DNA of 64,000 nt from Burkholderiales bacterium (GTDB lineage Bacteria > Pseudomonadota > Gammaproteobacteria > Burkholderiales > SG8-39): positions 1,710 through 65,709 of the forward strand of contig DASUFD010000027.1 of assembly GCA_036274735.1 (NCBI GenBank), written 5' to 3'. The notes beneath the pieces were generated by a model that saw only the letters and a program-made list of their open reading frames with translations, ran no database searches and was not told the DNA's origin. Positions 5,647-37,917 of this stretch are shown here, one piece after another. Both the position numbers and the translations under genes were made by a program. Each line of letters opens with the position of its first letter. Position 1 is the stretch's first letter.

Positions 5647-5674
5647 GACGATCGCCTTCGTCGGCCTCGGCACC

Positions 5675-7757: not shown

Positions 7758-7760
7758 TGG

Positions 7761-16727: not shown

Positions 16728-18956
16728 TCAGGCCGCGGCGATGCGCTGCTGCAGCCCGGAATCGGTTCCCTGGCGCAGCAGCGCTTCGACGCCGTCGGCC
16801 GGCAGCGCCTGGCTCGCGTAGAAGCCCTGGATCTGATCGCAGCCGAGCTGCTTGAGCAGCCGCACCTGGTCGTCCTCCTCGACCCCTTCGGCGATGACTT
16901 TGAGGCCGAGCGTGTGCGCGAGCGAGACGATCATCGCGACGATGTTGCGCGGGTAGCCGGCGTCGCGCATGCGCACGACGAAGCTGCGGTCGATCTTCAG
17001 CGTATCCACCGGCAGCCGCGCGAGGTAGCTGAGCGAGCAGTAGCCGGTGCCGAAGTCGTCGACCGAGATCTCGATGCCGGCGCGCCGCACCGTCTGCAGC
17101 TTGCGCGTACTCTCCTCGATGTCGTCGACCAGCACGCTCTCCGTGATCTCCAGATCGAGCAGCGGGCGATCGTCGGTGGACAGCGCCTGCAGCACCGACT
17201 CGACGAAATCCTTCTGGCGGAGCTGGATCGCCGAGACGTTCACGGAGACGCGCGGCACGCTCAAGCCGAGCGAGCGCCAGTGGCGAATGTCGCGCGCCGC
17301 CTGGCGCAGCGCCCAGCGGCCGGCGGCGAGGATCATCCCGGTCTCTTCCATCAGGGTGACGAAGCGCGAAGGCGGCACCGCGCCGAGCTCGGGGTCGGTC
17401 CAGCGAATCAGCGCTTCCAGCCCCGCCACCGCCCCGCTCTTCATGTCGATCTTCGGCTGGTAGTGCAGCGAGAGCTGCCCGTCCTCGAGCGCGCGCCGGA
17501 GGCGATTCTCCATCGCCAGCGACTCGGCGACGCGCGCGTTCATCTCCGGCGCGTAGAAGAGATAGCGCTGGTTCGTCTGCTTCGCCTTGGAGAGCGCCGT
17601 CTCGGCGTTGCCGCACAGGGACTCGGTCGACTCGCCGTCGGTCGGAAAAACGGCGATGCCGGCCTTGAGCAGCACGCGCAGCTCCACGCCGTCGACGACG
17701 ATCGCCGGGCCGAAAGCGCGGTCGATGCGCTCGATCACCTCGTGGATCGTGTCGCCGGGCCGCGCGAACGGCGCCACTGCGAGCGCGAAGCGGTCGCCGC
17801 CGACGCGCGCCACGGTGTCCTGCTCGCGCGCCGCGGCGCGCAGGCGCATCGCGATCTGGCGCAGCAGGTCGTCGCCCGCCTTGCGGCCGAACGTTTCGTT
17901 CACCATGCGAAATCGCTCGACGTCGAGGAACACCGCCGCGGCAAACCGCTTCTCGCGGCGCGCCGCGTTCAGCGCCTGCGTCATGCGGTCGGTGAACAGG
18001 CTCCGGTTCGGCAGGTCGGTGAGCGAGTCGTGGTAGGCCAGGTAGTCCATCCTCGCCTTCTGCTCTAGGTGGTGCAGGGCGAACGAGACGTCGCCGGCGA
18101 GCTCCTCGAGCAGACGCATCTCCTCGGCATCGAAAAAGTCCGGCGAGCGCGCGTACAGGAGCAGCATGCCGGCGGGCTCGCGCCCGGCGAGCAGCGGCAG
18201 CGCGACGAACGGACCGCTCTCCGCGTCGTTCCATACGACGGCCTGCGTGCCGGGTCTGAGGCGCTGCAGGTCCCGGTCCGCCCCGCCCTCGCCCGCCGCC
18301 GCCGCACGCTCCAGTCGCGCGGCGCCCGGGACGGCGAGGCCGATCACGGCCAGGCGAAAGCCGCCCTTTTCCACGGCGATGCGGCAGGCCTCCTCGAGGA
18401 GCGCCTGGCGGTCCGAAGCGCGCACGATGAGAGCGTTCACCGCGGAAAGCATCTCGAGCGTGCGGTTGAGCCGACGGATGCGCAGCTGCTGCGCCTCGAG
18501 CACGCCGGTCTTCTCGAGGAGCTGGTCCACCATCAGGCGCAGGTGCTCCCGGTCGAGCCCTTCCGCTGCCTCCGGCGCGGCGCTCGGCCGCTGCGCCAGC
18601 ACCTCGGACACGGCGGCCAGGATGACGTCGTTCGGTGACGGCTTGACCAGGACGCGCGCGACGCCGAGCGCCTGCGCGAGGTCCTTGGCATCCTGGCCGC
18701 CGAAGTACGCCGTGTAAAAAAGGACGCTGACCCCGGCCGTCGCCGGATCGACCTTGAGCCGGCGCGCGAGCTCGTAGCCGTCCATGTGCGGCATGAGCAC
18801 GTCGGAAATGACGAGGTCGGGCGCCTGCTCCCGGGCTCGGGCAAGGCCTTCGCGGCCGTTCTCCGCGACCACGACCTCGTGTCCGGCGCTCTCGAGCAGC
18901 GCGGCGAGGGCGGTACGGTTGGCGCGGTGGTCGTCGGCGACGAGGATTTTCGCCAC
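16728..18956 (-). CDS. response-regulator receiver / GAF / degenerate GGDEF / EAL protein (probable c-di-GMP phosphodiesterase)
   Basis: 742 aa. REC domain (ILVADDH...DVLMPHMDG). GGDRF in place of GGDEF, with the REQD I-site kept. EAL domain motifs EALIRW, DDFGTGYCSLSYL and KIDRSF. Confidence 0.9.
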   Translation of the reverse strand: MAKILVADDHRANRTALAALLESAGHEVVVAENGREGLARAREQAPDLVISDVLMPHMDGYELARRLKVDPATAGVSVLFYTAYFGGQDAKDLAQALGVARVLVKPSPNDVILAAVSEVLAQRPSAAPEAAEGLDREHLRLMVDQLLEKTGVLEAQQLRIRRLNRTLEMLSAVNALIVRASDRQALLEEACRIAVEKGGFRLAVIGLAVPGAARLERAAAAGEGGADRDLQRLRPGTQAVVWNDAESGPFVALPLLAGREPAGMLLLYARSPDFFDAEEMRLLEELAGDVSFALHHLEQKARMDYLAYHDSLTDLPNRSLFTDRMTQALNAARREKRFAAAVFLDVERFRMVNETFGRKAGDDLLRQIAMRLRAAAREQDTVARVGGDRFALAVAPFARPGDTIHEVIERIDRAFGPAIVVDGVELRVLLKAGIAVFPTDGESTESLCGNAETALSKAKQTNQRYLFYAPEMNARVAESLAMENRLRRALEDGQLSLHYQPKIDMKSGAVAGLEALIRWTDPELGAVPPSRFVTLMEETGMILAAGRWALRQAARDIRHWRSLGLSVPRVSVNVSAIQLRQKDFVESVLQALSTDDRPLLDLEITESVLVDDIEESTRKLQTVRRAGIEISVDDFGTGYCSLSYLARLPVDTLKIDRSFVVRMRDAGYPRNIVAMIVSLAHTLGLKVIAEGVEEDDQVRLLKQLGCDQIQGFYASQALPADGVEALLRQGTDSGLQQRIAAA

Positions 18957-19367: not shown

Positions 19368-20891
19368 ATGACCGAATCGGCGCTCCGGGCCGTGATGCAC
19401 TCCGAAGTGCCGTGGCTCGCCCTGCTCGCGCTGGTCGTGACCGGGCTGCTGCTGCGCTCGCGGCCGCACGAGCGGGCCGTGTTCCTGAATACGCTCTGGC
19501 TCTTTCTCTTCGGCGCCGCGGGCCAGGCGGCCGCTTGGGCGCTCGAGCAGCTCGCCGTGCCGGGCGCGGGTACGGTGGTGCATACCGTGTTCCGCATCAT
19601 CGCGGCCATCGCGCTCATCCGCCTGCTCGGCTTCGCGCTGTTTCGCCTGGTGCTCGCACGGCTGCGCGGCGAGCCGCCGCGCATCATCGAGGATTTGACG
19701 ATCGCCGCCGCGTACGTCGTATTCGCGCTCGCGCAGCTGCGCGTCGCCGGTGTCGACCTGTCGAGCATCATCACCACCTCCGCGATCCTTACCGCCGTGG
19801 TCGCCTTCGCCATGCAGGACACGCTCGGCAACGTGATCGGCGGACTGGCCATCCACATCGACAACAGCGTGCGCGTGGGCGACTGGGTGCGGGTCGACGA
19901 CGTCTCCGGGCGCGTGCGCGACATCGGCTGGCGCTCGACGACCATCGAGACGCGCAACTGGGAAACGGTCGTCGTGCCGAACAGCCTGATGATGAAGGGC
20001 CGCGTGGCGATCCTCGGCAAGCGCGAGGGCGGGCCGCTGCAGTGGCGGCGCACGCTCGCCTTCATGGTCGATCCCGGCGTGCCGCCGGCGCGGGTCATCG
20101 CCACGGTGAACGACGAGATGCGCGACGTGCCGATCGTCAACGTCGCGCGCACGCCGGCGCCGAACACCGTGCTGCACGGCTTCGAGGCCGGCAACCTGCT
20201 CTATCACCTGCGCTACTTCCTGACCGATCTGCTCGAGGACGAAGCGACCGACTCGATGGTGCGGGTACACCTCTTCGCCTCGCTGCAGCGCGCGGGCATC
20301 CGCATCGCCGAAGAGCAGCGCACCGTGCACGCGGTGAGCCGCGACGAGGCGCACGCCGACGCGGTGCGCAAGCGCGAGATCGGCCGGCGCCTCGAAATGC
20401 TGCGCGGCGTGGACCTCTTCTCGGTGCTTTCGGAAGACGAGATCGCCGAGATCGCCGAGCGCCTGCAGTACGCGCCCTTCGCACGCGGCGACATCATCAC
20501 TAAGCAGGGCAACGTCGCCCATTGGCTCTACATCGTCGCCTTCGGCGAGGTGGAAGTGCGCTACGAGCCGGCGAGCGGCCGGCCCCAGATCCTCGCGACG
20601 CTGCGCGCCGGGCAGTTCTTCGGCGAGATGGCGCTGCTCACCGGCGAAGCGCGCAGCGCCACCGTGACGGCGAAGACCGACGTCGAGTGCTACCGGCTGG
20701 ACCGCGCGTCGTTCCAGGGGCTGCTGCTTTCGCGTCCCGAGATCGCCGAGGCCATGAGCCGCATCATCAGCGCGCGGCGGCCGGAGCTCGAGAAGGTGCG
20801 CGAGGCCACCGCGGTCGCGCCTCTCGTCGCGCCGGTGGAATCGGCGGACCTACTGCGCAAGATCCAGCGCTTTTTTGGCATCCGCCGCTAG
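19368..20891 (+). CDS. mechanosensitive (MscS-family) channel with C-terminal cyclic-nucleotide-binding domain
   Basis: 507 aa. TM helices plus the MscS beta-domain (VRVGDWVRVDDVSGRVRDIGWRSTTIETRNWE). The cNMP phosphate-binding cassette reads FFGEMALLTGEARSATVTA. Confidence 0.85.
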   Translation: MTESALRAVMHSEVPWLALLALVVTGLLLRSRPHERAVFLNTLWLFLFGAAGQAAAWALEQLAVPGAGTVVHTVFRIIAAIALIRLLGFALFRLVLARLRGEPPRIIEDLTIAAAYVVFALAQLRVAGVDLSSIITTSAILTAVVAFAMQDTLGNVIGGLAIHIDNSVRVGDWVRVDDVSGRVRDIGWRSTTIETRNWETVVVPNSLMMKGRVAILGKREGGPLQWRRTLAFMVDPGVPPARVIATVNDEMRDVPIVNVARTPAPNTVLHGFEAGNLLYHLRYFLTDLLEDEATDSMVRVHLFASLQRAGIRIAEEQRTVHAVSRDEAHADAVRKREIGRRLEMLRGVDLFSVLSEDEIAEIAERLQYAPFARGDIITKQGNVAHWLYIVAFGEVEVRYEPASGRPQILATLRAGQFFGEMALLTGEARSATVTAKTDVECYRLDRASFQGLLLSRPEIAEAMSRIISARRPELEKVREATAVAPLVAPVESADLLRKIQRFFGIRR

Positions 20892-24347: not shown

Positions 24348-26403
24348 CGTCGAAAATTATACTTTCGACGAGTGCATCGAGCGCCGCCGCGCCCGTTTGA
24401 AACACGGCGACCGGATTGACGTCGACGGCGCAGACCCTGCCCTCCCAGCGCAGCATGGCCTCGCCCAGCCTCACCGCCATGCGGGCGAAGGCGGCGATGT
24501 CGCATGCCGCCTCGCCCCGCACGCCGTGCAGGAGCGGCGCGATGCGCAGCGCTTCGAGCTTCGCGACTACGTCCTGCTCTGAAAAGGGCGGCAGGAGCAG
24601 CCGGTAATCCTTCAGCGCCTCGAGATAGATGCCGCCGTCGCCGACCATGACGACCGGGCCGAAGCGCGGGTCGAGCCTCGCGCCGAGAGCCAGCTCGCGC
24701 GCCTTGCCCGCCTTGCGCGCCACGATCACGCCGTCGAACCAGCCGCCCAGCTCGCCGATGCGGCGGCGCAGGCGATGGAACTCCGCGACCGGATCGTCGA
24801 CCTGCAACGCGACGAGCCCGACGTCGCTCTTGTGCGCAATATCGCGCGAGCATCCCTTGAGCACGACCGATGTCCCGAGCGCCTTGCAGGCAGCCCGCAC
24901 TTCGTCTTCATCCCGGCACAGGCGATGCTCGATCACCGCGATGCCGGCTTGACCGAGCAGCGCCATGCCGGCCGCTTCGTCCAGCCGCCTCGCCGGGCCC
25001 GCGGCAAAGGCGCGCGGCACGGACGCCGGCGAACGGCGCAGCAGCGCCGCGTGGTCCGCGAGCTGCGCGAGAGCGTCCATCGCTTCGCGTTCGCGCGGGA
25101 ACGTGGCGATTCCCGCTTGAGAGAACGTTTCACGCACCGACGCCTGGGGCGCGGCGAGCGCCGCCGTGGCACCGTAGCGCTGCTGGAAGGAGGCCAAATC
25201 GCGCGCGAATCCCTGGACGTCGTAGCCCGTGCCGGCGACGGGAAGAGCGACCAGCACGAGCTCGCACTGAGCGTGTTCTCCGATGACCGGCAGCACGTCG
25301 CCGAATAGCCGGGGGTTGCCGAGCAGCGCGCCCGTGATGTCGATCGGGTTGTCGACCGCCGCGAACGTCGGCAGCACTGCGCGCAGGCGCGCGGCGGAAA
25401 CGGGGGCGAGCGGGATCGCACGCTCCTCGGCATAATCGGCGGCCATCACGCAGCTCGCCCCCGAGTTGCTGATGAACACCAGCCGGCGTCCAGCGGGGCG
25501 GCGCCCCTGTACATAGAGCTCGGCCGCGCTCACCAGCTCGTGCGGATCCGACGCGCGCCAGATCGCATGGCGCTCGAAGAAGGCATCGACGATGCGGTCC
25601 TCCGTGGCGAGCGCGCCGGTGTGCGAGCTCGCCGCCTTTTGGCCGCTGGCGGTGCGCCCGGCCTTGAGAGCGACGATCGGCAGGTCGCGACTGCGCGCAG
25701 CCTCGGCCGCGAGCGCGAGCGCCGCCGGATCCTTGATCGACTCGAGGTAGAGCAGGAGCAGGCGCACGCCGGGATCGGCCGCCACCGCGGCCGCAAGGTC
25801 GGCGACGGCGACATCGGCTTCGTTGCCGGTGGCGTGCACGTGGCGCACGCCCAGACCCCTGTCGCGCACGAGCTGGTAGATGGCCTGCGAGTTGGCGCCG
25901 CTCTGGCTGACGATCGCGACCGGACCGTCCCGTCCCTCCAGCTCGTGGAAAATGGTGGAAAAGTTCGCCACGGTGCCGGTGGCGAAATTCGCCAGCCCCT
26001 GGCAGTTGGGCCCGATCAAGCGCATGCCGGCGGCTTGCGCCGCCGCGACCATCCGGTTCTGCTTCGCCGATCCAGCTTCGCCCGTTTCCGCGAAACCGGA
26101 GGTCATCACCACCGCGACTTTCACGCCGCGCGCGGCGCAGGCCTCGACGGCCCGTACCGCTTCGTCACCCGCGACGGCGACGACGGCGAGATCCGGCGCA
26201 CGCGGCGTATCCTCGATCCCGGCGAACGCGCGCAAGCCCTGCACGGCGCTCCGCGCCGGGTTGATCGGATAGATCGCGCCGCGGTAGCCGTAGCGCTTGA
26301 GGTAGAGCAGCGGACGCCCGCCGACCTTGTGCGGATTGTCTGAGGCGCCGATGACGGCGATCGACTCGGGGTCCAGCGCGGCGTGCAGCATGGCGGCAGG
26401 CAT
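24331..26403 (-). CDS. ADP-forming acyl-CoA synthetase (acetate-CoA ligase family, CoA-binding plus ATP-grasp domains)
   Basis: 970-aa track ORF trimmed to the ATG at 26401-26403, giving 690 aa. Motifs [22 protein letters not shown] and the SSHTGALA phosphohistidine loop. The 3' end overlaps the etfB start by 17 nt. Confidence 0.85.
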
Positions 26404-26412
26404 AATAAGGCC

Positions 26413-27318
26413 ATGCTCGAAGGCAAGACGGTGCTCGTCACCGGCGCAGGCGGCGGGATCGGTCGGGATTTCGCGCTCGCCATGGCGGCCGCCGGCGCGA
26501 GCGTTCTGGTGAACGACCTCGGCACCTCGGTGGCGGGGGAAGGCGCGAGCGCCGGTCCGGCGCAGAAAGTCGCCGACGAGATCCGCTCGGCCGGCGGACG
26601 CGCGGCGGCGAGCACGGACAGCGTCGCCGACTGGGCCTCGGCGAACCGCATCGTGGAGGCCGCGCTCGACCATTTCGGACGGCTCGACGTCGTGGTGAAC
26701 AACGCCGGCATCCTGCGCGACCGGTTCTTCTTCAACATGTCCGTGGAGGAATGGCGCGCAGTCATCGACGTCCATCTCAACGGGTCGTTCTACGTTGCGC
26801 GCGCCGCCGCACCGCACTTCCGCTCGCAGCAATCGGGCTGCTATGTCCACATGACCTCGACCTCCGGCCTGGTCGGCAACCTCGGGCAGGCAAACTACTC
26901 CGCCGCCAAGCTGGGCATCGTGGGGCTCTCCAAGTCGATCGCCCTCGACATGGCGCGCTACCAGGTACGCTCGAACTGCATCGCGCCCTTCGCCTGGAGC
27001 CGCATGATCGGCTCCATCCCGACCGAGACGCAGGATCAGCAGGCACGCGTGGAGAAGATGAAGAGCATGCACACGGCGAAGATCGCTCCGCTTGCGGTCT
27101 GCCTTGCGGCCGATGTCGCGCGCGAGGTCACCGGCCAGGTCTTCGCGGTCCGGGGGAACGAGATCTTCCTGATGTCGCAGAGCCGGCCGCTTCGCTCCGT
27201 GCATCGCGCCGACGCATGGACGCCGGAGGCGATCGCGGCGCACGCACTCCCCGCTTTGCGCTCGAGCTTCTATCCTCTCGAGCGCTCCCAGGATGTCTTC
27301 AACTGGGATCCGCTCTAG
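26413..27318 (+). CDS. SDR-family oxidoreductase (MFE-2-type hydroxyacyl-CoA dehydrogenase-like)
   Basis: 301 aa from the ATG at 26413. Motifs KTVLVTGAGGGIGR, NNAGI and YSAAK. A GTG at 26383 is an alternative start. Confidence 0.85.
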   Translation: MLEGKTVLVTGAGGGIGRDFALAMAAAGASVLVNDLGTSVAGEGASAGPAQKVADEIRSAGGRAAASTDSVADWASANRIVEAALDHFGRLDVVVNNAGILRDRFFFNMSVEEWRAVIDVHLNGSFYVARAAAPHFRSQQSGCYVHMTSTSGLVGNLGQANYSAAKLGIVGLSKSIALDMARYQVRSNCIAPFAWSRMIGSIPTETQDQQARVEKMKSMHTAKIAPLAVCLAADVAREVTGQVFAVRGNEIFLMSQSRPLRSVHRADAWTPEAIAAHALPALRSSFYPLERSQDVFNWDPL

Positions 27319-27330
27319 CCGGCAACGCCG

Positions 27331-28614
27331 CTACGCGGCCTGGGCCAGCCGCCGATTGGACTCGGCCAGTCGTTCAATCAGGACTCGCATGCACGCCCTG
27401 TTGAGCGCTGCCTGGCAGGCGTCGGACGCCGCGCGCATGGCCGCGGCCTTCACTTCGAGCACGCCGATGTCGCGCCGCGCGCTGACGGTGGTGCTACGCG
27501 GTTGTTCGTGCTCCGAGAAGTACAGCATCTCGCCGAAGCATCGCCCGGCCTTCACCGTGGCGAGCAGCTTGCCGGAGAGCGTCACGTCGACCTCCCCATC
27601 GGCCAGGAAATAGAGCGCGTCCCCGGGCTCGCCTTCGCGCAGGACGACGCTGCCGGCGGCGATCGTCTTCCACGCGCCGATCCGCACCAGCTCCCACAGC
27701 GCGACATCGTTGAAGTCCGCGAAGAACGGCGATTCGCGCAGCTTGTTGAACCTTTCGGAGTCGGAGAGCACGCCGCCGGCCTGGCGCAGCGCCGCGAAGG
27801 CCTGCGAGAGGTCGCGACCGAAGTCGAGCCACGACGCGTAGCGCGCGGCCGGGTCCTTGGCGATGGCCCTCATCACTACTGAGTCGAGCAGCGCGGGCAG
27901 CTCGGGCCGCAGCTGTGCCGGGCGCTGCGGCTCGGCGTTCAGTATGGCGTAGGTGAGGCCCGCCTGGGTGGACGCGGCGAAGGGCAGGCGGCCGGTCACC
28001 AGCCGGTACATCGTGACGCCGAGCGAATAGATGTCGGTCTGGTGCGTGAGCGGCTCCATCCGGATCTGCTCGGGCGACATGTAGGCGGGTGACCCGACGA
28101 GGCTGACCTGCGTGGTGTCGAGCAGCTTCTGCTGGAACGACGCGCCGAAGTCCCCGACCTTCGTCTCGCCGCTCGCCGAAAGCAGGATGTTGCCGGGCTT
28201 GATGTCGCGGTGGATGACGCCGTGGCGGCAGGCGTACTCGAGCGCGCGCACGCACTTGAAGATGATCTCGACGACCTTGCCGAGCGGCAGGAGCGTCGGC
28301 GCCTCGGCGTGCGCCTCCAGAGTCGTGCCCGCGACGTACTCCATGACCAGGTAGCTGCGGTCCGGGTCGACCACGGCGTCGAAGATGTCGACGATGTGCG
28401 GATGGTTCAGCTTGCCGGCAAGCGACGCCTCGGCAACGAACGCCTTGTGCATCATCCGCTCCTCGTGCTCGTCGGCGTGCTTGTCGAAGAGGAACACCTT
28501 GATGGCCACCTCGCGCCCGGCGAAGGGGTCGCGCGCGAGATACACCTTGCTCGTCGCGCCCGCGCCGATCTCGCGCAGCACCGGATACTTGCCGATGCGC
28601 TCGGGCAGCGCCAC
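27331..28614 (-). CDS. Hanks-type Ser/Thr protein kinase fused to a cyclic-nucleotide-binding domain
   Basis: 427 aa. The GTG at 28612-28614 lies 2 nt after the chpA stop. Kinase motifs GAGATSKV, VAIKV, HRDIKPGNILL, DFG and SPAYMSPE. C-terminal cNMP cassette CFGEMLYFSEHEQPRSTTVSA. Confidence 0.88.
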   Translation of the reverse strand: MALPERIGKYPVLREIGAGATSKVYLARDPFAGREVAIKVFLFDKHADEHEERMMHKAFVAEASLAGKLNHPHIVDIFDAVVDPDRSYLVMEYVAGTTLEAHAEAPTLLPLGKVVEIIFKCVRALEYACRHGVIHRDIKPGNILLSASGETKVGDFGASFQQKLLDTTQVSLVGSPAYMSPEQIRMEPLTHQTDIYSLGVTMYRLVTGRLPFAASTQAGLTYAILNAEPQRPAQLRPELPALLDSVVMRAIAKDPAARYASWLDFGRDLSQAFAALRQAGGVLSDSERFNKLRESPFFADFNDVALWELVRIGAWKTIAAGSVVLREGEPGDALYFLADGEVDVTLSGKLLATVKAGRCFGEMLYFSEHEQPRSTTVSARRDIGVLEVKAAAMRAASDACQAALNRACMRVLIERLAESNRRLAQAA

Positions 28615-28616
28615 CC

Positions 28617-31600
28617 TTACCGCGCCGCGAAGGCAGCCACGTGCCGCACCAGCTCGGCCTCCTCATAGGGCTTGCCGAGGAACACGTCGACGCCGAGCTG
28701 CGCGGCCCGGCTGCGGTGCTTGGCCGCGGTGCGCGAGGAGATGACGATGATCGGGATGTCGGTGGTGCGCGGGTCGCCGCGCACGTTGCGCGCCAGGTCG
28801 AAGCCGTCCATGCGCGGCATCTCGATATCGACCAGCAACACCGCCGGCAGCTCGCCCTTGAGCTGCTCCAGCGCGTCGACCCCGTCCTTGGCGGTGAGCA
28901 CCCGGTAGCCCTCGCGCTCGAGCAGGCGGCCGGTGACCTTGCGTACCGTGATCGAGTCGTCGACGACCATCACCAGCGGCGCACGCACCTCCCGCGCTGC
29001 GAGCTCCGGTACGCCGGTGCGCGCGACGGGAAGGGCGGCGCGGCCGACGAGCTGGATCGGATTGACGATCAGCACGATGCTGCCGTCCGGCATCACGGTC
29101 GCACCTGCGACGCCGGGAATGCGGGCAAGCTGCGGCCCTATGTTCTTCACGACCATCTCGCGGCTGCCCACCAGCTCGTCGACATGGAGCGCGACGCGCT
29201 GCGTGCCGCTGCGAACCAGGAGCACCGCGTTGTAGTCGGCGATGTGCGTGGCGCCGCGGCTGCCGAACAGCTGGTGCAGGTAGTGGAGCGGATAGTCGCT
29301 CTCGCGGAAGACGACCTTCGCCGCTTCGTAGCACGCCACGAGCTCGTCGGCCTTGACGCGCAGCACCTGCTCGACCGCCGCCGAGGCGATCGCAAAGCGC
29401 TGCGTCCCGGCGCGAACCATGAGCGCCTGGGTGACCGCCAGCGTGAGCGGCAGATAGATGGTGAAGTGGGTGCCGCGGCCCGCGGCGGCGTCGGCCTCGA
29501 CCCGTCCGCCGATGGCGTTGACCTCGCTGCGCACCACATCCAAGCCGATGCCGCGGCCGGCCAGCTCGCTCACCGCTTCCGCGGTCGATAGCCCGGAGAG
29601 GAAGACGAGCTGCACGCATTCCTCTGGCGAAAGCGGCTGCTCGGCGGGAATGAGGCCCTTAGCCGCGGCACGCTCGCGAAGCCGCGCGCCGTCGATGCCG
29701 ATGCCGTCGTCGGCGAGGGCGATCACCAATTGATTGGCCTCCTGTCGCAGCGCGATGGAGATGCGGCCGCTTTCGGGCTTGCCGGCCGCGACGCGCGTCT
29801 CCGGGGCCTCGATGCCATGCACCATCGCGTTGCGCAGCATGTGCTCGAGCGGCGCGGCCATCCGCTCGAGGACGCCGCGGTCGAGCTCGACCTGGCCGCC
29901 GTCGATGGCGAGCTCCGCTTTCTTGCCCAGCTCGCGCGCCGCCTGGCGCACCACGCGATGCAGGCGCTCGGAGAGGCTGGAGAACGGCACGGCGCGCATG
30001 CGCATGAGGTCCTGCTGCAGCTCGCGGCTGATGCGCGCCTGCTGCAGCAGCGCGGCGTCGGTCTCGCCGACGCTGTGCAGGAGTGCCTGCTGGAGCGACG
30101 CGGCATCGCTCAGGCCCTCGGCCATCATGCGCGTCAGCTCCTGCAGGCGGGTGTACCGGTCGAACTCGAGCGGATCGAACTCGCCTTCCCGCTCTTCCAG
30201 GACGGCGCGGCGCGACTGCATCTGGCTGTCCGCCTGGATCTCGACCTCGCGCAGCTGCGTGCGCAGCCGCGAGACGCTTTCGCTCAGCTCGCCGAGCGCC
30301 TGCTTTACCTGGCGCAGCTCCGCTTCGATGCGCGATCGCGCGATTGCCGCCTCGCCCGCCTCGGTGATCAGCCGGTCGAGCCGCTCGGCGTTGATGCGCA
30401 GCATCGGCGTCGAAGCCGCAGCGGGCGCGGCCGCCGCGCCGGGTGCCCCGAGCTTCTCCAGGTCGGCGGACAGGCGATCCATCTTGCCTTCCAGGTCCTC
30501 GAACAGCTCGGTCGTGAGCTCGCCCGCCTCGAGCGCGAACTCGATGCGGCTCTCCATGAGGTGCGTGAGCTCGCCCAGGCGAATTGCCCCAGCCATGCGC
30601 GCGCTTCCCTTCAGCGTATGCAATGCGCGTTTCACCGCGTCGGCTGCGTGGCGATCCTCGGGCGATGCCTGCCAGTCGCGCAGGTCCCTGCCGAGCTGCG
30701 GCAGCAGCTCGCGCGCCTCGTCGAGGAACACCGGCAGCAGATGGGCGTCGATATCGTCGCGCACGGTACGCTTGTCCTTGCGGCGCGCCGGGACCTGCAA
30801 GCGGTCTTTCAGCGCCCGCAACGCGGCGAGCGCATCCTCGCCGCCGCGGCGCGCTTCCCCGCGGCCCGCGGCCTCGACCATCGCGGCCAGCGTGTCGACG
30901 CATTCGCCGACGACGGCGGCGTCGCCAGGCTCGCCGGTACGTGCGGCCAGGGCAAGCCATTGCTCGAGCGCGGCGGCGAGCGTCGCGATGTCCGGGAAGC
31001 CGGCGGTACGCGAGCTGCTGGCGAGCGTGTGCGCGGCGCGCATGAACTCCGGCGACGCCTCCGCAGGCGCCTGCTCGCGCCACGCGCCGTACTGCGCCTT
31101 CAACGTGGCGGCGTGCGCCGCGGCCTCCTTGAAGTAAATCTCTCGCATGCGCACGGCTGGATCGTCCTGCGCGCGCAGGCCGGCCGCGAGGCGACGCAGG
31201 GGTGCTGGATCGACGAGGGGCGACTCCCCGGCGCGCAACTGGGCGATCCAGGCGGAGAAGCGCTGATGCGCGAGCGCTACCAGCTCGAGCAGCTCGGCCG
31301 ATGCGGGCTGCTTCTGCTCCAGCCACTGATTCATGGCCCGCTCCACTTCCCACGCCGCCTCGCCGAGCTCCGTGAGCCCGACCATGCGCCCGCTGCCCTT
31401 CAGCGTATGGAAACCGCGCCGGATCGCCGCGAGCGCTTCCAGCTTCTCCGGCTCGGCGCGGCACGCCGCGAGCCCCGCTTCAACCGCCGCAACCACGTCC
31501 GCCGCTTCCTCGAGGAAGACCTGCAGTAGCTCGTCGGACGGCGCGCCCGCGCTCTGCGCGCCGGCCTTCTCGGGCATCGGCTGCTGCGCCGCCCGCGCGA

Positions 31601-33245
31601 GGAAGAGGTCGAGCGCCGCCTGCCGGGGCTCGCGTCCGTTCACGCAGGGGCTGATGAACAGCTCCAGGGCGCTGAGGCCTTCGGCCACCCAGTCCAGGCT
31701 CGCGCTGCCAGGCGAGAGCGTCGGCATCAGCGCCTCGCAACGCTCGAGCGCGGCGATGGCGCGATCCCAGCCGAGGACGGACAGCGCACCGTGGATCTGC
31801 CGCAGTTGCGGCGCCACGCCGCGCAGCTCGGCGAGCTCCTTCTGCCCCCGCGCGTAGCCGTCTAGCACCTGCTCGATCCGCTGCAGGTTCGCGAGCATTT
31901 CCTTGGCTACCTGGGAGCGAAGTTGCAGCGAGCTCACGTACTCGGTGAGCTCGCGGCGCAGGCCGGCCGGCGGCGCAACGGTCTTGCCCGCGCCGGCGGC
32001 GTCGGCAAGCCAGCGGCCGAGGAGGCTCACCTGCTCGTCGAGATCCGGCGCGGGATGAAGGAATGTCTCGAGGATGCTCTCGGCGAGCAGGAACGCGGAA
32101 GCCATCTCGGCGAGCATCGCTTCGCTGTCGGGCGGACGCGGGTCCGGCAGCGTCGCGGCCGCTTCGCCGACGGCTCGCAGGAGCGCGCTGAGCGGCGCGC
32201 TGGAGAGCGCGCCGACGCGCTCCTTCAGCGCCTGCACCCGCGCCCGGAAGGCCAGCGCGCCGCTCGGCTCGCCTTCCAGGTATTGCTGCCAGGTCTGCTG
32301 GGCGGCCTGGAGGCGCAGCCGCACGTCCTCGAGCACCGGTTGCAGCGTGTCGACATCCGGGCTGCGCGCGCCTTGCGCAGGCAGCAGGGCGTCGAGGCCA
32401 TAGAGGCGCTTGACGTCGCGCAGGCGTTGCGTGAGCGGCGCGCAGCAGGCGATGGCATAAAGCAGGTCGCGCAGCAGGGGCTCGTTGTCGGGGCTCGCGT
32501 CCCGCCCCTGCGCAAGCTGCCGAATGTAGATGTCGATCTTGTTCCACAGCGATCGCGCCTGCGCGAGGCGTTGCGGGTCGGTAGCGTTCGGCAGGCCATC
32601 GGCCAGGGCGCCGGCGACCCACCACAAGGCGCGGCGCTCGGGCAGCAGGTGCGCGACCGAATGGATGACGTCGAGCGTGGCGCGCATCTCGTCCAGCGCC
32701 TGGGGCTCGCGTCGGATCCAGCCGAGGATGGCCCGCTGCCAGCGCGTGCGCTGCGACTGCAGGAACGCCGGCAATTCCGCCGCCTCGATGGCGAGCGGCC
32801 GGGGGTGCGAGGGGGCGGGCGGCGTCAGGTCAGGGAAGAACAGCTCGATCTCCGAGCTGTCCTCGCGTCCCTGGAGCTGCGCGAGCTCCCGGTATACGGG
32901 GAAGAGCCGCGTCGGCGCGTTCGGCTGCCCGCGCGCCACGTCGTCGACGAACTGCCTCAGCTCGAGCACCGCCCGGTCGAGCACTGCCGCGCCCTGGGCG
33001 CCGGCATCCTCGAGCCCGGTCAGGCTTCTCTCCAGTGCCTCGCAAAAGCGCGTCGCGCCGCTCAGTCCGACCATGTTCAGCGCACCGCTCACCTGGTGCA
33101 GGTGCTCGGGACACGCGGCGAGCGGCGCGGCGTCGCCCGGCGCCGTCCGGTACGCGGCGAGCTGGCGGCGCACGCGCTCCAGCGCCTGGTCCACCTCGGC
33201 GGTGATCCAGGAAAGAATCGTCGTGTCGGCCATCAAGCCCGTCAC
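28617..33245 (-). CDS. chpA: ChpA/PilL-type hybrid CheA histidine kinase (multiple Hpt, HATPase, CheW-like, C-terminal receiver)
   Basis: 1542 aa. Canonical Hpt motifs GFHTLKGSGR (His613) and ALHTLKGSAR (His876), plus three degenerate Hpt-like sites. Kinase core HMLRNAMVHGIE...GRGIGLDVV, then a CheW-like region. REC domain VMVVDDS...LVDIEMPRMDG. Start is GTG 33245 or ATG 33233. Confidence 0.9.
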   Translation of the reverse strand: MTGLMADTTILSWITAEVDQALERVRRQLAAYRTAPGDAAPLAACPEHLHQVSGALNMVGLSGATRFCEALERSLTGLEDAGAQGAAVLDRAVLELRQFVDDVARGQPNAPTRLFPVYRELAQLQGREDSSEIELFFPDLTPPAPSHPRPLAIEAAELPAFLQSQRTRWQRAILGWIRREPQALDEMRATLDVIHSVAHLLPERRALWWVAGALADGLPNATDPQRLAQARSLWNKIDIYIRQLAQGRDASPDNEPLLRDLLYAIACCAPLTQRLRDVKRLYGLDALLPAQGARSPDVDTLQPVLEDVRLRLQAAQQTWQQYLEGEPSGALAFRARVQALKERVGALSSAPLSALLRAVGEAAATLPDPRPPDSEAMLAEMASAFLLAESILETFLHPAPDLDEQVSLLGRWLADAAGAGKTVAPPAGLRRELTEYVSSLQLRSQVAKEMLANLQRIEQVLDGYARGQKELAELRGVAPQLRQIHGALSVLGWDRAIAALERCEALMPTLSPGSASLDWVAEGLSALELFISPCVNGREPRQAALDLFLARAAQQPMPEKAGAQSAGAPSDELLQVFLEEAADVVAAVEAGLAACRAEPEKLEALAAIRRGFHTLKGSGRMVGLTELGEAAWEVERAMNQWLEQKQPASAELLELVALAHQRFSAWIAQLRAGESPLVDPAPLRRLAAGLRAQDDPAVRMREIYFKEAAAHAATLKAQYGAWREQAPAEASPEFMRAAHTLASSSRTAGFPDIATLAAALEQWLALAARTGEPGDAAVVGECVDTLAAMVEAAGRGEARRGGEDALAALRALKDRLQVPARRKDKRTVRDDIDAHLLPVFLDEARELLPQLGRDLRDWQASPEDRHAADAVKRALHTLKGSARMAGAIRLGELTHLMESRIEFALEAGELTTELFEDLEGKMDRLSADLEKLGAPGAAAAPAAASTPMLRINAERLDRLITEAGEAAIARSRIEAELRQVKQALGELSESVSRLRTQLREVEIQADSQMQSRRAVLEEREGEFDPLEFDRYTRLQELTRMMAEGLSDAASLQQALLHSVGETDAALLQQARISRELQQDLMRMRAVPFSSLSERLHRVVRQAARELGKKAELAIDGGQVELDRGVLERMAAPLEHMLRNAMVHGIEAPETRVAAGKPESGRISIALRQEANQLVIALADDGIGIDGARLRERAAAKGLIPAEQPLSPEECVQLVFLSGLSTAEAVSELAGRGIGLDVVRSEVNAIGGRVEADAAAGRGTHFTIYLPLTLAVTQALMVRAGTQRFAIASAAVEQVLRVKADELVACYEAAKVVFRESDYPLHYLHQLFGSRGATHIADYNAVLLVRSGTQRVALHVDELVGSREMVVKNIGPQLARIPGVAGATVMPDGSIVLIVNPIQLVGRAALPVARTGVPELAAREVRAPLVMVVDDSITVRKVTGRLLEREGYRVLTAKDGVDALEQLKGELPAVLLVDIEMPRMDGFDLARNVRGDPRTTDIPIIVISSRTAAKHRSRAAQLGVDVFLGKPYEEAELVRHVAAFAAR

Positions 33246-33252
33246 CGGCGCT

Positions 33253-35361
33253 TCACGCCAGCCTGAAGCCGGCCACCGACTTCTTCAGCCCGACGGCCAG
33301 CTCGGTCAGCTTGGTCGCCGAGAGCGCGGTCTTCTTCGTACCCTCGGTGGTGAGCTGCGTCACGCCGAGGATGATCTTCATCTTGCCCGCCACCTCGGAT
33401 GCCGAAGCCGCCTGCTGCTGGGTGGCGTTGGAGATCGCGCCGATCAGCTCCGCCAGCCGGTTCGAGATCTTCTCGATCTCGCGCAGCGCCTGGTCGGCTT
33501 CGTCAGCGGTGCGCGTCCCCTCCACGACTTCCCGGGTGCTGCGCTCCATCGCCTCCACGGCGTCCTGGGTGTCGCGCTGAATGCTTTTCACGATCGTCCC
33601 GATGTGCTTGGTGGCTTCCGCCGAGCGCTCGGCGAGGCGCTGCACCTCCTCGGCAACCACCGTGAAGCCCCGTCCCGCCTCCCCCGCCGAGGCCGCCTGG
33701 ATCGCAGCGTTCAGCGCGAGCACGTTGGTCTGCTCCGTGATGTCGGAGATCAGCTGCACGATCTCGCCGATCTCCTGCGAGCTCTCGCCGAGCCGCTTGA
33801 TGCGCTTCGAGGTCTCCTGGATCTGCTCGCGGATGTCGTTCATGCCGCGGATCGCGTTCTGCACCGCCTCGGCGCCCTTGCCCGCAGCGGCGAGGGACGA
33901 CTCGGCCACCCTCGCCGAGTCGTTGGCGCTCGCCGAAACCTGGTTCATCGACTGCGCCATCCGCGTCACCGACTGTCCGGTCGCCTGGATCTCCATCGCC
34001 TGCTTCTGCGTCGCCTGCAGGAGCTGCCCCGACACCGTCTGGGCCTCCTGGGTCGCCGCGTTCACCTGCTGCGCGGCGTTTGTGATGCCGGCCACCAGAC
34101 GCCGCAGCTCGTCGATCGTGTAATTGATCGAATCGGCGATCGCACCGGTCATGTGCTCCGTGACCCGTGCCCGCACCGTCAGGTCGCCGCTCGCGAGGTT
34201 GCCGATCTCGTCCAGCAGCCGCAGGATGGCGTCCTGGTTCTCGCGGTTCTGGCGCTCGCTCTGCTCGGCCCGACGACGGCTGTCGTCGATGTACGTCTTG
34301 CCGATGAGCAGCAGCACGGCGAAGGCGAGCAGCGACACCCCGAGCATCGCCGCGAAGTTGAGCCGCCGGGCGTTGAGCAGGCCGTCGTAGCCGGCAGCGA
34401 GCTGCTCCGTCGCGCCGAGCAGCTTCTCGCTATCGTTGAAGATGTCGCGGGTGGCGCGCTTCGCGTTCACCAGGCGCTGCATGTTGCCGAGGATCTGGCT
34501 CACGCCCGCCTGGTACTCCTTGAAGGTCGCCTGCAGCTCGGCAAGCTTGCCGCGGATCATCGGCTCGTCGACCCGATCGATACGCAGCGCGCGGTCGCCC
34601 TGGGCGAGGCCCTGCACCAGGTCGCGAAAGGTGTTGGTGTCCTTGCCGAGCAGGAACGCCACCTCGGGGTCGACGATATCGCCCGCCAGCATGGCATTGG
34701 CGTTCTTCGCCATGCGCTGGGTCAGCATCACGAGCTGCGCGGCAATCGCGTTCTGCCGGGCGCCACCGCCGGTCTGCACGCTGAACGCGGCCACCTCCTC
34801 GGCGTTCTCGAGCAGCACCGGGTTGTTCTCGTTGATGGTGCGCACCGCGCCTGCCAGCGCGACCAGGTTGCGCTCCTCGCCGATCACCAGCATGGCGTTG
34901 CGTTCGGTCTTGCGCCACTCCGTTTCCAGCGCGGCGAGCCTGGGGCGCACCGCGTCCGGGGTCGGCGGCAGGTCCACCTCGGCGGCGGTGCCTCCTGCCG
35001 CGAGCAGGTGGACGAGCGAGGCGAACTCGTCGCGGCTTTCGCGCAGCTGCTGGAAAGCCACCGGGTTGCCTTGCGAAGCCTGCTGCGCCGCCTTGGCCAG
35101 GCGCTGCGACAGCATGCGCAGCTTTCCGACGGTCGCGACGTAGAGCGTGTCGAAGGTCGCCTCACGAGCGTCGTAGACGACGACGCCGACGTCGATCGCG
35201 AGGAGCACGACGAGCAACACCATCAGGAACTGCAGTCGTCGCCCCGCGCCGCGCCGGGCGAGGCCGGCAAGCACCCCGGCCATGCCGCCGGAGGAGCGCG
35301 CTGCCCCCGCGGCGTCGCGCGCGATGAAAGGTATCTTGAAGAATTCGAGCCTGTTTCCCAT
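33253..35361 (-). CDS. pilJ: PilJ-type methyl-accepting chemotaxis protein
   Basis: 702 aa. Two PilJ/NarX-like periplasmic boxes ([13 protein letters not shown] and [13 protein letters not shown]). Signalling hairpin [31 protein letters not shown]. Confidence 0.9.
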
Positions 35362-35370
35362 GGCGACTCC

Positions 35371-36501
35371 CTAGCGCAGAAACTTGCCGTCGCGGGCGAT
35401 GATCGTCAGGTCAACGAACTTCGACGCGCTGTGATTGGTCGGCGAGAAGCCGACATAGAAGCCGCCGACGTCGACGTCGTTCATCCTCTCCAGCGTGGCG
35501 ATCAGCCGCTCGCGGGTGAGCTCGCGCCCGGTACGGCGCAAGGCTTCGACGAACACTTTCGCGGCGATGAAGCCTTCGATGGTGGTGAAGGTCAATTCCT
35601 TGTGGCCGGCGCGCCGCATCAAACCCTGATACTCGCGCACTACGGGGACCGCGGCGCCCCACGGGAAGGGCATCACCTGCGAAATCGCCACCCCGACGCC
35701 CTGCCCGCCGAGGTCGTCCGCGAGCGCCTTGCTGCCGACGAACGAGACGTTGTAGAACTGCGCGGCGCTGCCCTGCTTCTTCATCTGGCGGATGAACTCC
35801 GCGCAGGCCTTGTACGCGCCGATCATGACCACCGCGTCCGGCTGCGCGGCGTTCAAAGTTTTCACCGCGCGCTCCACCTTGACCGTGTTCCGCTCGAAGA
35901 TGCCCGTCGCCGAGATCTTCAGGTTGCGCCTCTCCATGGCGAGCTCGACCCCCTTGAGGCCCGCCTGCCCGTAGGCATCGTCCTGGTAGAACACGGCGAT
36001 GTTCTTCGAGCCGGTCGATACGAGCTGCTCGACGATCTTCTCCGTTTCGTCGTAATAGCTCGCTCTCACGTTGAAGATGTAGTGGTTCACCGGCTGGCGC
36101 AGCAGCTCGGCGCCGGTGAACGCGCCGAAGAACGGCACCTTCGCCTGTGTGAAAATCGGCAGCGCGGCCGCCGAGGTGGGCGTACCGACGTAGCCGAAGA
36201 GCGCGAATACCTTGTCCTGCTCGATCAGCCGCTTCGTGTTCGGCACGGTGCGCGAGGGCTCGTAGCCGTCGTCGAGCGTGATGAGCCGGATCTTGCGCCC
36301 GCTTACGCCGCCGCTCGCATTGACGTAGTCGAAGTAAACCTTCGCCCCGTTGCGCATCTCCGTGCCGAGAGCGGCCGCCGGACCCGTGAGCGCGACCGAC
36401 TGGCCGAGCACGATGGTGTCGGCGCTGACGCCGTTCTCGGCGAAGCTCGCAGGCGAGAAGAATCCTGCCGCGACGAGCAGGCAAGGAGCGATGCGCTTCA
36501 T
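35371..36501 (-). CDS. periplasmic substrate-binding protein, LivK/Peripla_BP_6 (branched-chain amino acid ABC type)
   Basis: Track ORF trimmed to the ATG at 36499-36501, giving 376 aa. Signal peptide MKRIAPCLLVAAGFFSPASFA. Motifs IVLGQSVALTGPAAALG and GYVGTPT. ATGA overlap with the pilI stop, with a GGAGG SD inside the pilI 3' end. Confidence 0.88.
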   Translation of the reverse strand: MKRIAPCLLVAAGFFSPASFAENGVSADTIVLGQSVALTGPAAALGTEMRNGAKVYFDYVNASGGVSGRKIRLITLDDGYEPSRTVPNTKRLIEQDKVFALFGYVGTPTSAAALPIFTQAKVPFFGAFTGAELLRQPVNHYIFNVRASYYDETEKIVEQLVSTGSKNIAVFYQDDAYGQAGLKGVELAMERRNLKISATGIFERNTVKVERAVKTLNAAQPDAVVMIGAYKACAEFIRQMKKQGSAAQFYNVSFVGSKALADDLGGQGVGVAISQVMPFPWGAAVPVVREYQGLMRRAGHKELTFTTIEGFIAAKVFVEALRRTGRELTRERLIATLERMNDVDVGGFYVGFSPTNHSASKFVDLTIIARDGKFLR

Positions 36502-37025
36502 AGGCTGGCCTCCAGGAAAGCGGGGTGTTCGACGAGGGCCGGGATGTCGAGCTCCCTCCACAGCTTGCCGTGCGCATCGGCGAAGACGCCGCGCACGAAC
36601 GCCGGCCGGCGCGGCGCGTTCTCGCCGTGCTGGCGCAGCGCCTCGGGATCGCGCAGACCGAGCGAGCGCTCGACGAGCAGCGCCGCCCCGGAACGAAAGC
36701 GCTCGTTGACGAGGAGCAGGCGGCATTGCTCGCCGGGCCTCGTGGGCGCTCCGCCGAGGAACGCCGCGAAGTCGGTCACGCAGTACAGGTTTCCGCGCAC
36801 ATTCGCCACGCCCTTGAACCAGGGGCGCGCGAGCGGCACGGCGGAGACTGCGGGCACGGGAATGACTTCGCCCGCCTCTGCGAGGTCGACCAGCCAGCCT
36901 TCGTCCCCGACCTGCAGCCCGAGCTTCGAGGCGATGCGCGCGCCCGCTTGGGCGCTCTGCAGGCGCTCGGAAAGCGCGAGCTGATACTCGCGCAGCGAGC
37001 CCGCTCGGGAGGCCGGCGTGGCCAT
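36498..37025 (-). CDS. pilI: CheW-like coupling protein PilI
   Basis: Trimmed to the ATG at 37023-37025, giving 175 aa. CheW-like core (VPLARPWFKGVANVRGNLYCVTDF). Shares 1 nt with the pilH stop. Confidence 0.85.
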   Translation of the reverse strand: MATPASRAGSLREYQLALSERLQSAQAGARIASKLGLQVGDEGWLVDLAEAGEVIPVPAVSAVPLARPWFKGVANVRGNLYCVTDFAAFLGGAPTRPGEQCRLLLVNERFRSGAALLVERSLGLRDPEALRQHGENAPRRPAFVRGVFADAHGKLWRELDIPALVEHPAFLEASL

Positions 37026-37390
37026 CAGCCGAGCGCGGCGATCTTGGCGAGCAGATCCGCCGGGTTGACGGGCTTGACGACATAGTCGCGCGCGCCCTGG
37101 CGCAAGCCCCACACCTTGTCGGTCTCCTGCCCTTTGCTGCTGCACAGTATGATCGGGATGCTCTTGGTGCTCTCGTCCCTGCTCAGGGCACGCGTCGCCT
37201 GGAAGCCGTTCTGCCCGGGCATCACGACATCCATCAGCACGAGGTCTGGGCGCGATGTTCTGAGCTTGGCCATCGCGTCCTCGGCGCTCTCGGCCGTGGC
37301 GACCTTGAAGCCGCTCTTGGACAGGATCTCGCTCAGGTACTGGCGGTCGGTAGGCGAATCGTCGACGACCAGGATGTTGGAAATAGCCAT
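37025..37390 (-). CDS. pilH: single-domain response regulator PilH
   Basis: Trimmed to the ATG at 37388-37390, giving 121 aa. Motifs ILVVDDSPTDR...LMDVVMPGQNG...KP. Confidence 0.9.
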   Translation of the reverse strand: MAISNILVVDDSPTDRQYLSEILSKSGFKVATAESAEDAMAKLRTSRPDLVLMDVVMPGQNGFQATRALSRDESTKSIPIILCSSKGQETDKVWGLRQGARDYVVKPVNPADLLAKIAALG

Positions 37391-37401
37391 GGCAATGCCT
37401 T

Positions 37402-37827
37402 TCAGTTGGAAACGGAAGAAGCTTTGACGTACTCGTTGACCGCCTCGACCAGGCCTTCCCGCGTGAAGGGCTTGGTGAGATAGCGATCGGAACCGGCCAG
37501 GCGGCCGCGCGCCCGGTCGAAGACGCCGTCCTTGCTCGAGAGCATGATCACGGGGGTCGACTTGAGGCGCGCGTTCTGCTTGATCAGCGCGCAAGTCTGG
37601 TAGCCGTCCAGGCGCGGCATCATGATGTCGACGAAAATGACGCGCGGCTGGTGGTCGGCGATCTTGGCGAGGGCATCGAAGCCGTCCTCGGCGAGAATCA
37701 CTTCGTAGCCGGCTTGGCGGAGGAACGTTTCGGCGCTGCGCCGGATGGTGTTGCTATCGTCGATGACAAGGACTTTGACCGGTCCTGTTCCTACCGTGAG
37801 CGGTCCGACCGTGGTCTCGTTCGTCAC
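37402..37827 (-). CDS. pilG: single-domain response regulator PilG
   Basis: 141 aa, GTG start with a GGAGGAG SD. VLVIDDSNTIRRSAETFL...FVDIMMPRLDGYQTCALIK...LSSKDG...YLTKPF closely resembles Pseudomonas PilG as I recall it. Confidence 0.92.
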   Translation of the reverse strand: MTNETTVGPLTVGTGPVKVLVIDDSNTIRRSAETFLRQAGYEVILAEDGFDALAKIADHQPRVIFVDIMMPRLDGYQTCALIKQNARLKSTPVIMLSSKDGVFDRARGRLAGSDRYLTKPFTREGLVEAVNEYVKASSVSN

Positions 37828-37890
37828 TTACGGGCTCCTCCTGAAACCTGGCTTCCTCTTACAAGTCTTGCACTTACTGAAACTTCTTTA

Positions 37891-37906
37891 AGTGAAATAA
37901 TTCATA
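37891..37906. promoter_or_regulatory. CRP/Vfr-like half-palindrome (candidate site)
   Basis: AGTGA-N6-TCATA against the consensus TGTGA-N6-TCACA, matching 4 of 5 bases in each half. Located in the AT-rich divergent pilG / citrate-synthase-like control region. Confidence 0.2.
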
Positions 37907-37917
37907 GGACGGCACAA

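Follow-up and report, generated by a model that had tools for sequence, protein, structure and literature searches.

The closest described relatives of the system considered here are the Pil-Chp chemosensory pathway of Pseudomonas aeruginosa, encoded by pilGHIJK-chpABCDE, and the minimal pilGHIJ-chpA operons of Acinetobacter baylyi and Acinetobacter baumannii, which lack pilK and chpB (PMC9596432, PMC8088505). What the receptor PilJ senses (pilin, surface tension or chemicals), and whether it does so directly or via a helper, is an open question; a solute-binding protein (SBP) acting as an intermediary for PilJ has been hypothesised, but not identified, in P. aeruginosa (PMC10896506). Here we describe a Pil-Chp operon in a 64-kb stretch of DNA from a Burkholderiales bacterium (contig DASUFD010000027.1; 'the window' refers to this whole stretch), in which seven contiguous open reading frames (ORFs) on the minus strand, at 27331-37827, follow one another in the order pilG, pilH, pilI, SBP, pilJ, chpA and STK-CNB. 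The fourth gene encodes a periplasmic binding protein of the Peripla_BP_6 family, and the last a Hanks-type Ser/Thr kinase with a C-terminal cyclic-nucleotide (cNMP)-binding domain (CNB). As in P. aeruginosa, there is a PilG/PilH pair, a CheW-type PilI, PilJ and a ChpA with many Hpt domains and a receiver, in the same core order; unlike in P. aeruginosa, PilK as well as ChpB, ChpC, ChpD and ChpE are lacking, an SBP gene separates pilI from pilJ, and chpA is followed by a gene for a cNMP-binding Ser/Thr kinase. The Acinetobacter operons have the same core, with no SBP or Ser/Thr kinase gene listed in them (PMC9596432, PMC8088505). An earlier note on this DNA knew of no described Pil-Chp operon with such genes, and our searches of the open-access literature likewise turned up none in which an SBP or a cNMP-binding Ser/Thr kinase is encoded. 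The operon is a real, conserved Pil-Chp variant, the new part of which is the two built-in genes.

The conservation of the arrangement was established from two sets of loci. One genome per species was scanned with PilJ, which gave 80 loci (L001-L080), all from uncultured metagenome-assembled genomes (MAGs; one from a single-cell genome) and nearly all labelled Burkholderiales or Betaproteobacteria, and their gene content was scored by tblastn with the seven window proteins. The SBP gene lay between pilI and pilJ in 54 of the 80 loci, and the kinase gene was found directly 3' of chpA in 41, which is to say in 41/41 of the loci that bear a kinase. Both extra genes were present in 33 loci in which both sides could be assessed (36 by a separate gene extraction); a further 17 had the SBP with the kinase side lost at a contig end, four had the kinase without the SBP (L014, L038, L043 and L074), one had the SBP without the kinase (L047), and the more distant loci carried neither gene in the operon. 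The tight junctions were also retained, with medians of -1 nt for pilH-pilI (67 loci), 14 nt for pilI-SBP (52 loci, 15 of them with an ATGA overlap), 10 nt for SBP-pilJ (54 loci) and -4 nt for chpA-kinase (41 loci), where a 4-nt start/stop overlap was the commonest form. No internal stops were present in the SBP or kinase orthologues. In the reverse test, the SBP was used as a query on metagenome contigs and returned 80 loci at 64-87% identity; pilI and pilJ flanked the SBP gene in 52 of them, and nine more showed one flank, the other lying beyond the contig end. Two further contigs with independent ENA and JGI gene calls had the identical seven genes and the same downstream synteny. Thus, a large lineage of uncultured Burkholderiales from soil, abundant in soil metagenomes, has conserved the operon variant.

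For the window itself, the gene order, tight junctions and operon boundaries set out in the earlier note agreed with the ORF coordinates, and the family that it had assigned to each gene was recovered by Pfam in every case (Table 1). Gaps of 11 nt (pilG/pilH), 9 nt (SBP/pilJ), 7 nt (pilJ/chpA) and 2 nt (chpA/STK-CNB) separate the genes, except that the pilH stop and pilI start have 1 nt in common (TGATG) and that pilI and the SBP gene overlap as ATGA. The operon is bounded on its 3' side by a convergent short-chain dehydrogenase gene (26383-27318, plus strand), the two stop codons being 12 nt apart, and on its 5' side by a divergent citrate-synthase-like gene from about 37918, whose putative start codon is TTG rather than ATG. 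A ribosome-binding site, AGGAGGAG, lies 7 nt ahead of the GTG start of pilG, and the pilG products of related loci are 78-92% identical. A consensus promoter scan found no sigma-70 site upstream of pilG; consensus scans likewise gave no internal promoters, and terminator-like sites were not above those of shuffled sequence, results that are uninformative at the 69% GC of the window. An Rfam scan of the window gave no match. Composition was uniform over the operon region, and a plus-strand ORF of 1484 amino acids (32530-36984), antisense to pilJ and the SBP gene, was rejected as an artefact of high GC and not a gene. The remaining window genes scanned with Pfam, all but a few small ORFs, belong to housekeeping metabolism, and neither a PP2C phosphatase nor an FHA protein was among those scanned. 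Two tandem genes for lytic transglycosylases (SLT) with LysM are located at 60200-61708 and 61754-63133 on the plus strand.

Table 1. Features of the operon, with window coordinates and the basis of each assignment (aa, amino acids).
Feature	Coordinates	Strand	Basis
Intergenic region upstream of pilG, common to the divergent gene	37828..37917	-	sequence reading
pilG: single-domain CheY-like response regulator, 141 aa, GTG start, short N-terminal extension	37402..37827	-	Pfam Response_reg 5.2e-27, residues 19-131
pilH: single-domain CheY-like response regulator, 121 aa	37025..37390	-	Pfam Response_reg 7.3e-31
pilI: CheW-type coupling protein, 175 aa	36498..37025	-	Pfam CheW 8.1e-19
SBP: secreted Peripla_BP_6 protein, 376 aa	35371..36501	-	Pfam 1.2e-62
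pilJ: chemoreceptor, 702 aa	33253..35361	-	Pfam PilJ PF13675 2.3e-22 (2 stretches) and MCPsignal PF00015 3.4e-40
PilJ periplasmic sensor domain, aa 64-335, type A	34357..35172	-	identity comparison across loci
chpA: CheA-type hybrid histidine kinase, 1542 aa, GTG start (alternative ATG at 33233)	28617..33245	-	Pfam
STK-CNB: Ser/Thr kinase with cNMP-binding domain, 427 aa, cytoplasmic	27331..28614	-	Pfam Pkinase 1.1e-49 (aa 11-258) and cNMP_binding PF00027 3e-15 (aa 316-395)

By every sequence feature tested, the core of the operon is a pilus-class (Pil-Chp) chemosensory system: it encodes a multi-Hpt ChpA with a receiver, a receptor that combines a PilJ domain with an MCP domain, and PilG/PilH together with PilI upstream of that receptor. 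In ChpA, Pfam recognised four Hpt stretches followed by H-kinase_dim, HATPase_c, CheW and a C-terminal Response_reg receiver, internal repeat analysis with a self-profile gave about eight Hpt-like repeats, and the orthologues on the ENA- and JGI-called contigs carry FimL_2nd/FimL_C matches. In one degenerate Hpt-like repeat (aa 401-440, about 31926-32045), Thr stands where the phospho-accepting His would be, and orthologues have Thr, Ser or Val there; this recalls the Spt/Tpt domains known from ChpA of P. aeruginosa. The idea that the kinase targets such Ser/Thr-type repeats found no support, the same acceptor residues being present equally in operons that lack a kinase.

The CheR (PilK) and CheB (ChpB) enzymes of the Pseudomonas model are absent from the window operon. 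E. coli CheR and the catalytic domain of CheB, used as queries, detected no homologue in the window and the 160 related loci (1.7 Mb), and the operon genes are contiguous, with no gene-sized gap that could hold a methyltransferase or methylesterase. The window PilJ contains no strict methylation-consensus motif, unlike P. aeruginosa PilJ, for which such motifs are reported (PMC10896506), and none was present in 46 of 74 orthologues. CheR and CheB are not strictly defining for Pil-Chp systems, because accepted Acinetobacter members also lack them; the earlier note was right about their absence, but a Pil-Chp system without them is already known (PMC9596432, PMC8088505) and so is not new here.

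The SBP has a Sec signal peptide that ends ASFA|EN, and signal peptides are conserved among its orthologues. Its nearest solved structures are 4kv7, 3lop and 4m88, all structural-genomics entries. The earlier note called it 'LivK-type'. This description is valid at the level of the superfamily, as the protein belongs to Peripla_BP_6, but not below it: the SBP has low identity to LivJ and LivK and scored 60 bits with the LivJ/K model NCBIfam PRK15404, for which the cut-off is 477, and by these comparisons it is not a LivJ/K orthologue. Ser79, Thr102, Tyr150, Tyr202 and Glu226 of LivJ are, we assume, ligand contacts, Glu226 presumably holding the amino group of the ligand. In an alignment to E. 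coli LivJ/LivK, which is one of low identity, Thr102 and Tyr150 are retained, the Ser79 position is Thr, and the Glu226 position is Ser within an NVSFVG motif that is invariant in the SBP family. This suggests that the ligand of the SBP differs from that of LivJ, and it may be a carboxylate other than an alpha-amino acid. Homologues of the transporter genes LivFGHM were found nowhere in the 64-kb window and were absent from 157 of the 160 related loci; in two loci they lay several kb from the SBP gene.

In a tree of SBPs, two clades were sister to the pilus-linked proteins. Members of one are encoded by the first of two tandem orphan Peripla_BP_6 genes after grpE-dnaK-dnaJ (L141-L143, e.g. L142 105-6322; L147, L148 and L136). 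Several genome loci, too, have dnaK-dnaJ a few kb upstream of pilG. In the other clade the SBP gene is divergently placed beside that of a sensor histidine kinase (L149 1-3884; L151; L134) that combines a doubled periplasmic domain of PilJ type with two GAF domains and a HisKA/HATPase core. These SBPs are 66% identical to the window SBP and about 70% identical to other pilus-linked SBPs, and the periplasmic domain of their partner kinases is nearer to the PilJ sensor type of the window (type A, 162-202 bits) than to a second type (type B, 110-118 bits). Such an SBP gene, linked to a signalling gene and not to a transporter, recalls LuxP-LuxQ, although there the SBP family and the sensor fold differ from those of the proteins described here, which are known from sequence alone.

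The sensor types were recognised by splitting PilJ, whose transmembrane helices are at aa 45-63 and 336-354, into a periplasmic part (aa 64-335) and a cytoplasmic part (aa 360-702). Type A sensors are 62-81% identical to that of the window, with cytoplasmic parts at 76-92%, and all 54 SBP-bearing genome loci are of this type, with the SBP in the operon. In type B (seven loci) the sensor is only 32-34% identical to that of the window and the cytoplasmic part 77-83%, and the SBP is never present. In type C (six loci; sensor 46-52%, cytoplasmic part 71-76%) there is no SBP inside the operon; an orphan Peripla_BP_6 gene is instead found, divergently oriented, between a FIST-domain gene and pilG (L061, L063 at 5411-8019, L064, L067, L070 and L076), with no transporter genes near it. 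The type-C protein branches just outside the clade of in-operon SBPs, at 42-44% identity, a value about equal to the one estimated by eye for the planctomycete structure 4kv7. A FIST-domain gene divergently adjoins pilG also in L073, L075 and L078, whose operons have no SBP gene within them. The metagenome loci gave the same picture, as all 50 in which enough of pilJ followed the SBP gene were of type A (at least 60%, median 71%, identity to A, and a median of 32% to B), so that about 104 SBP-linked sensors in total are of this type. Thus, the SBP gene is linked to a receptor gene and co-varies with the type of its sensor.

A tree was built from PilG, PilH, PilI, the cytoplasmic part of PilJ and ChpA, with the sensor domain excluded and 200 bootstraps. 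The type-B locus L074 was sister to the type-A locus L032 in 200/200 bootstraps. The two are 93% identical in PilH, 88% in cytoplasmic PilJ, 84% in the kinase and 72% in ChpA but 31% in the sensor; L074 has no SBP gene, and its sensor matches the one of L077, an otherwise more distant locus, at 63% identity. By this tree, replacement of the sensor type coincided with absence of the SBP at least once, L074 being the only well-supported swap. For a second group of type-B loci (L073, L077 and L079), a position within the type-A clade is likewise probable, with only moderate support.

The second extra gene encodes a protein with all the motifs of a Hanks-type kinase: the Gly-rich loop, VAIK, HRDIKPGN (HRDxKxxN), DFG, the activation-loop TTQ and SPE are present and at least 95% conserved among 41 orthologues. 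The phosphate-binding cassette of its CNB (Gly-Glu...Arg, here FGE...R.tT) is likewise intact, FGE and the Arg being invariant in the 41 orthologues; the residue after this Arg, which we take to influence the preference for cyclic AMP (cAMP) or cyclic GMP (cGMP), is variable among them. STK-CNB is therefore likely to be an active, nucleotide-binding enzyme, to judge from its motifs. The best solved match of the kinase core is PknB (1e-44), and STK-CNB has the canonical core in common with PknB-type Hanks kinases but, unlike these, no transmembrane segment and no PASTA part. With PKG it shares a cNMP-binding domain with a Gly-Glu...Arg cassette in the same polypeptide; compared with PKA and PKG the domain order is reversed, the predicted CNB being single and C-terminal.

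This two-domain architecture, in proteins of about 430 aa, is common: among the best 150 matches, each standing for a 50%-identity cluster, many align over their full length and are of similar size. Four relatives could be placed (59, 54, 53 and 47% identity): the genes beside them were clpB, rhodanese-TusA or Sox/molybdopterin genes, or they lay on a short contig where nothing adjoining them matched ChpA. Relatives at 47-54% identity (L164-L169) occur near genes of sulfur metabolism, with rhodanese-TusA directly downstream in one group and SoxYZ, molybdopterin oxidoreductase and DsrE-like genes near the other. Because the kinase family is broad and the four more distant relatives examined do not lie beside chpA, the association of the kinase with Pil-Chp is a recruitment specific to the soil lineage. 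The window contains a second cNMP-binding protein, an MscS-type channel fused to a cNMP-binding domain (19368-20891, plus strand; about 6.4 kb from the kinase gene), which is found in the same synteny on contig L163 (18475-19290). Its gene adjoins one for a receiver-GAF-GGDEF-EAL protein of cyclic di-GMP turnover (16728-18956, minus strand). Taken together, the channel and the kinase point to what may be active cNMP signalling in the lineage.

Our preferred interpretation is that the seven genes form a Pil-Chp operon in which the SBP provides an input as co-receptor of PilJ and the kinase adds a cNMP-gated branch, an account that we hold with somewhat better than even confidence. It has to be weighed against the possibility that the SBP is an ordinary SBP of HAAT-family ABC (ATP-binding cassette) transport, with permease and ATPase encoded elsewhere, which sits in the operon by co-regulation or by chance. 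Peripla_BP_6 is a family dominated by transporter proteins, a Liv-type transporter is encoded a few kb away in two loci, and a nested, non-pil copy of the SBP gene (L125) follows a LivF-like fragment. Further observations weigh against a dedicated partnership with PilJ. Some close relatives of the SBP adjoin dnaK-dnaJ. The SBP tree conflicts with those of PilJ and ChpA: for instance, the window SBP shares 84-85% identity with its counterparts in L072 and L051 but just 63-66% with the ones of L001-L010, whose PilJ is at 76-84%; this suggests that the SBP gene may have been exchanged between lineages. The type-A sensor was kept without an adjacent SBP in three lineages (L014; L038 and L043), and in 23/200 bootstraps the second type-B group was not nested in the type-A loci but sister to every other operon not of type C, these being the type-A loci plus L074. 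A mirror-tree analysis of 35 type-A loci gave a partial Mantel r of 0.09, with 272 of 2000 permutations at least as high, so fine-scale co-evolution of SBP and sensor found no support, there being no signal beyond shared phylogeny. In addition, the SBP gene abuts the 5' part of pilJ, which codes for the sensor, so that a single tract of recombination would exchange the two regardless of any interaction between the proteins. Set against a transport role are the lack of Liv-type transporter genes in the window and in 157 of the 160 loci, the retention of the pilI-SBP-pilJ position with junctions of 9-14 nt in more than 100 loci, the strict co-occurrence of the SBP with one sensor type, and the pairing of a sister clade with a histidine kinase whose sensor is of PilJ type. 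Moreover, according to a review of known cases, dedication to signalling is typical of SBPs encoded beside signalling genes (PMC8050422). On this evidence we consider an ordinary transport function unlikely, and signalling from the SBP to PilJ probable.

For the kinase the position is less clear. It may be a cNMP-dependent Ser/Thr kinase of general function, its targets lying outside Pil-Chp, that came to stand downstream of chpA in this lineage and is merely co-transcribed; this would fit with how common its architecture is, with the finding that chpA was beside none of the four relatives examined (47-59% identity), and with the lack of a kinase in related operons (types B and C, L047). The earlier note's proposal of a Ser/Thr-phosphorylation output stands as far as the kinase and cNMP-binding domains are concerned, but relatives of the protein occur in unrelated contexts, and a possible role as an output of Pil-Chp is inferred from its predicted co-transcription with chpA. 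The pairing of the two extra genes described in that note is likewise seen in the 33 loci with both, but gain and loss of the SBP are independent of those of the kinase. Nor did the Pfam scan find a nucleotide cyclase among the window genes covered, and the link to cAMP and CyaB in the note is an analogy with Pseudomonas. On the other hand, the kinase gene is directly after chpA in 41/41 kinase-bearing loci, and it was retained where the SBP or the sensor type had changed (L014, L038, L043 and L074). Since the 4-nt start/stop overlap, its commonest junction, implies that translation is coupled, the arrangement favours a functional connection, and we regard a general kinase with unrelated targets as a possibility of some weight, if still on the doubtful side. 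The operon might also be a Pil-Chp-derived pathway with a non-pilus output, e.g. second-messenger or exopolysaccharide control, as type IV pilus genes were not found among the window genes scanned and the accessory genes are unusual; this seems improbable given that every hallmark of the pilus class is there, namely the PilJ N-terminal domain, the PilG/PilH pair and a multi-Hpt ChpA that has a receiver and FimL-like regions. Finally, the window is from a metagenome-assembled contig and could in principle be a chimera of MAG assembly or, as the earlier note had allowed, hold a one-off insertion. A one-off insertion is refuted because the same order recurs across the genome and metagenome loci, and with dozens of independent assemblies from different projects in agreement and composition uniform across the region, we give practically no credence to either.

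The co-receptor interpretation, with a kinase branch, would work as follows. The minimal core consists of the CheY-like PilG and PilH, the CheW-type PilI, the receptor PilJ and ChpA as a multi-Hpt CheA with a receiver, with no CheR/CheB methylation adaptation, and the two lineage-specific genes are, to judge from their junctions, translationally coupled to it. The SBP would most likely capture a small ligand in the periplasm that probably carries a carboxylate, and would dock on the periplasmic domain of a type-A PilJ, giving the pilus receptor an indirect chemical input and so a means by which pili might be controlled. There are precedents for such an input. In Halobacterium salinarum the Peripla_BP_6 protein BasB is encoded beside the transducer BasT, and GltB binds the PilJ-type sensor domain of McpN (PMC8050422). 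In these two pairs, as in MBP-Tar of E. coli, a secreted SBP presents a ligand to a transmembrane chemoreceptor, as is proposed here; those receptors feed flagellar or archaellar taxis, whereas the candidate receptor here is a single pilus-class PilJ, with the SBP gene inside the operon, in a system known from its genes. The kinase, on binding cAMP or cGMP, would phosphorylate Ser/Thr residues of a Pil-Chp or pilus component, or of another shared target, and so may add a second-messenger-gated branch or a feedback to the His-Asp relay.

A wider proposal can be made, in which PilJ is a chemoreceptor for a soluble compound via a dedicated SBP and a cNMP-gated Ser/Thr loop also replaces methylation adaptation. 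The SBP would then have co-evolved with the sensor domain as a module, and signalling from ChpA to PilG would change cAMP, which would act on the co-translated kinase; this in turn would phosphorylate PilJ, ChpA or a pilus motor or regulator and thereby reset or redirect the output. We consider this combination unlikely.

The functional interpretation as a whole is plausible, more firmly so for the SBP and tentatively for the kinase. An SBP encoded within the operon is a defined candidate partner for PilJ and makes indirect chemical sensing by this receptor directly testable. With the kinase, cyclic nucleotides may have a way to feed back on the pilus chemosensory pathway by Ser/Thr phosphorylation rather than by transcription. 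As the lineage is abundant in soil metagenomes, the system may shape the surface motility of common uncultured soil bacteria.

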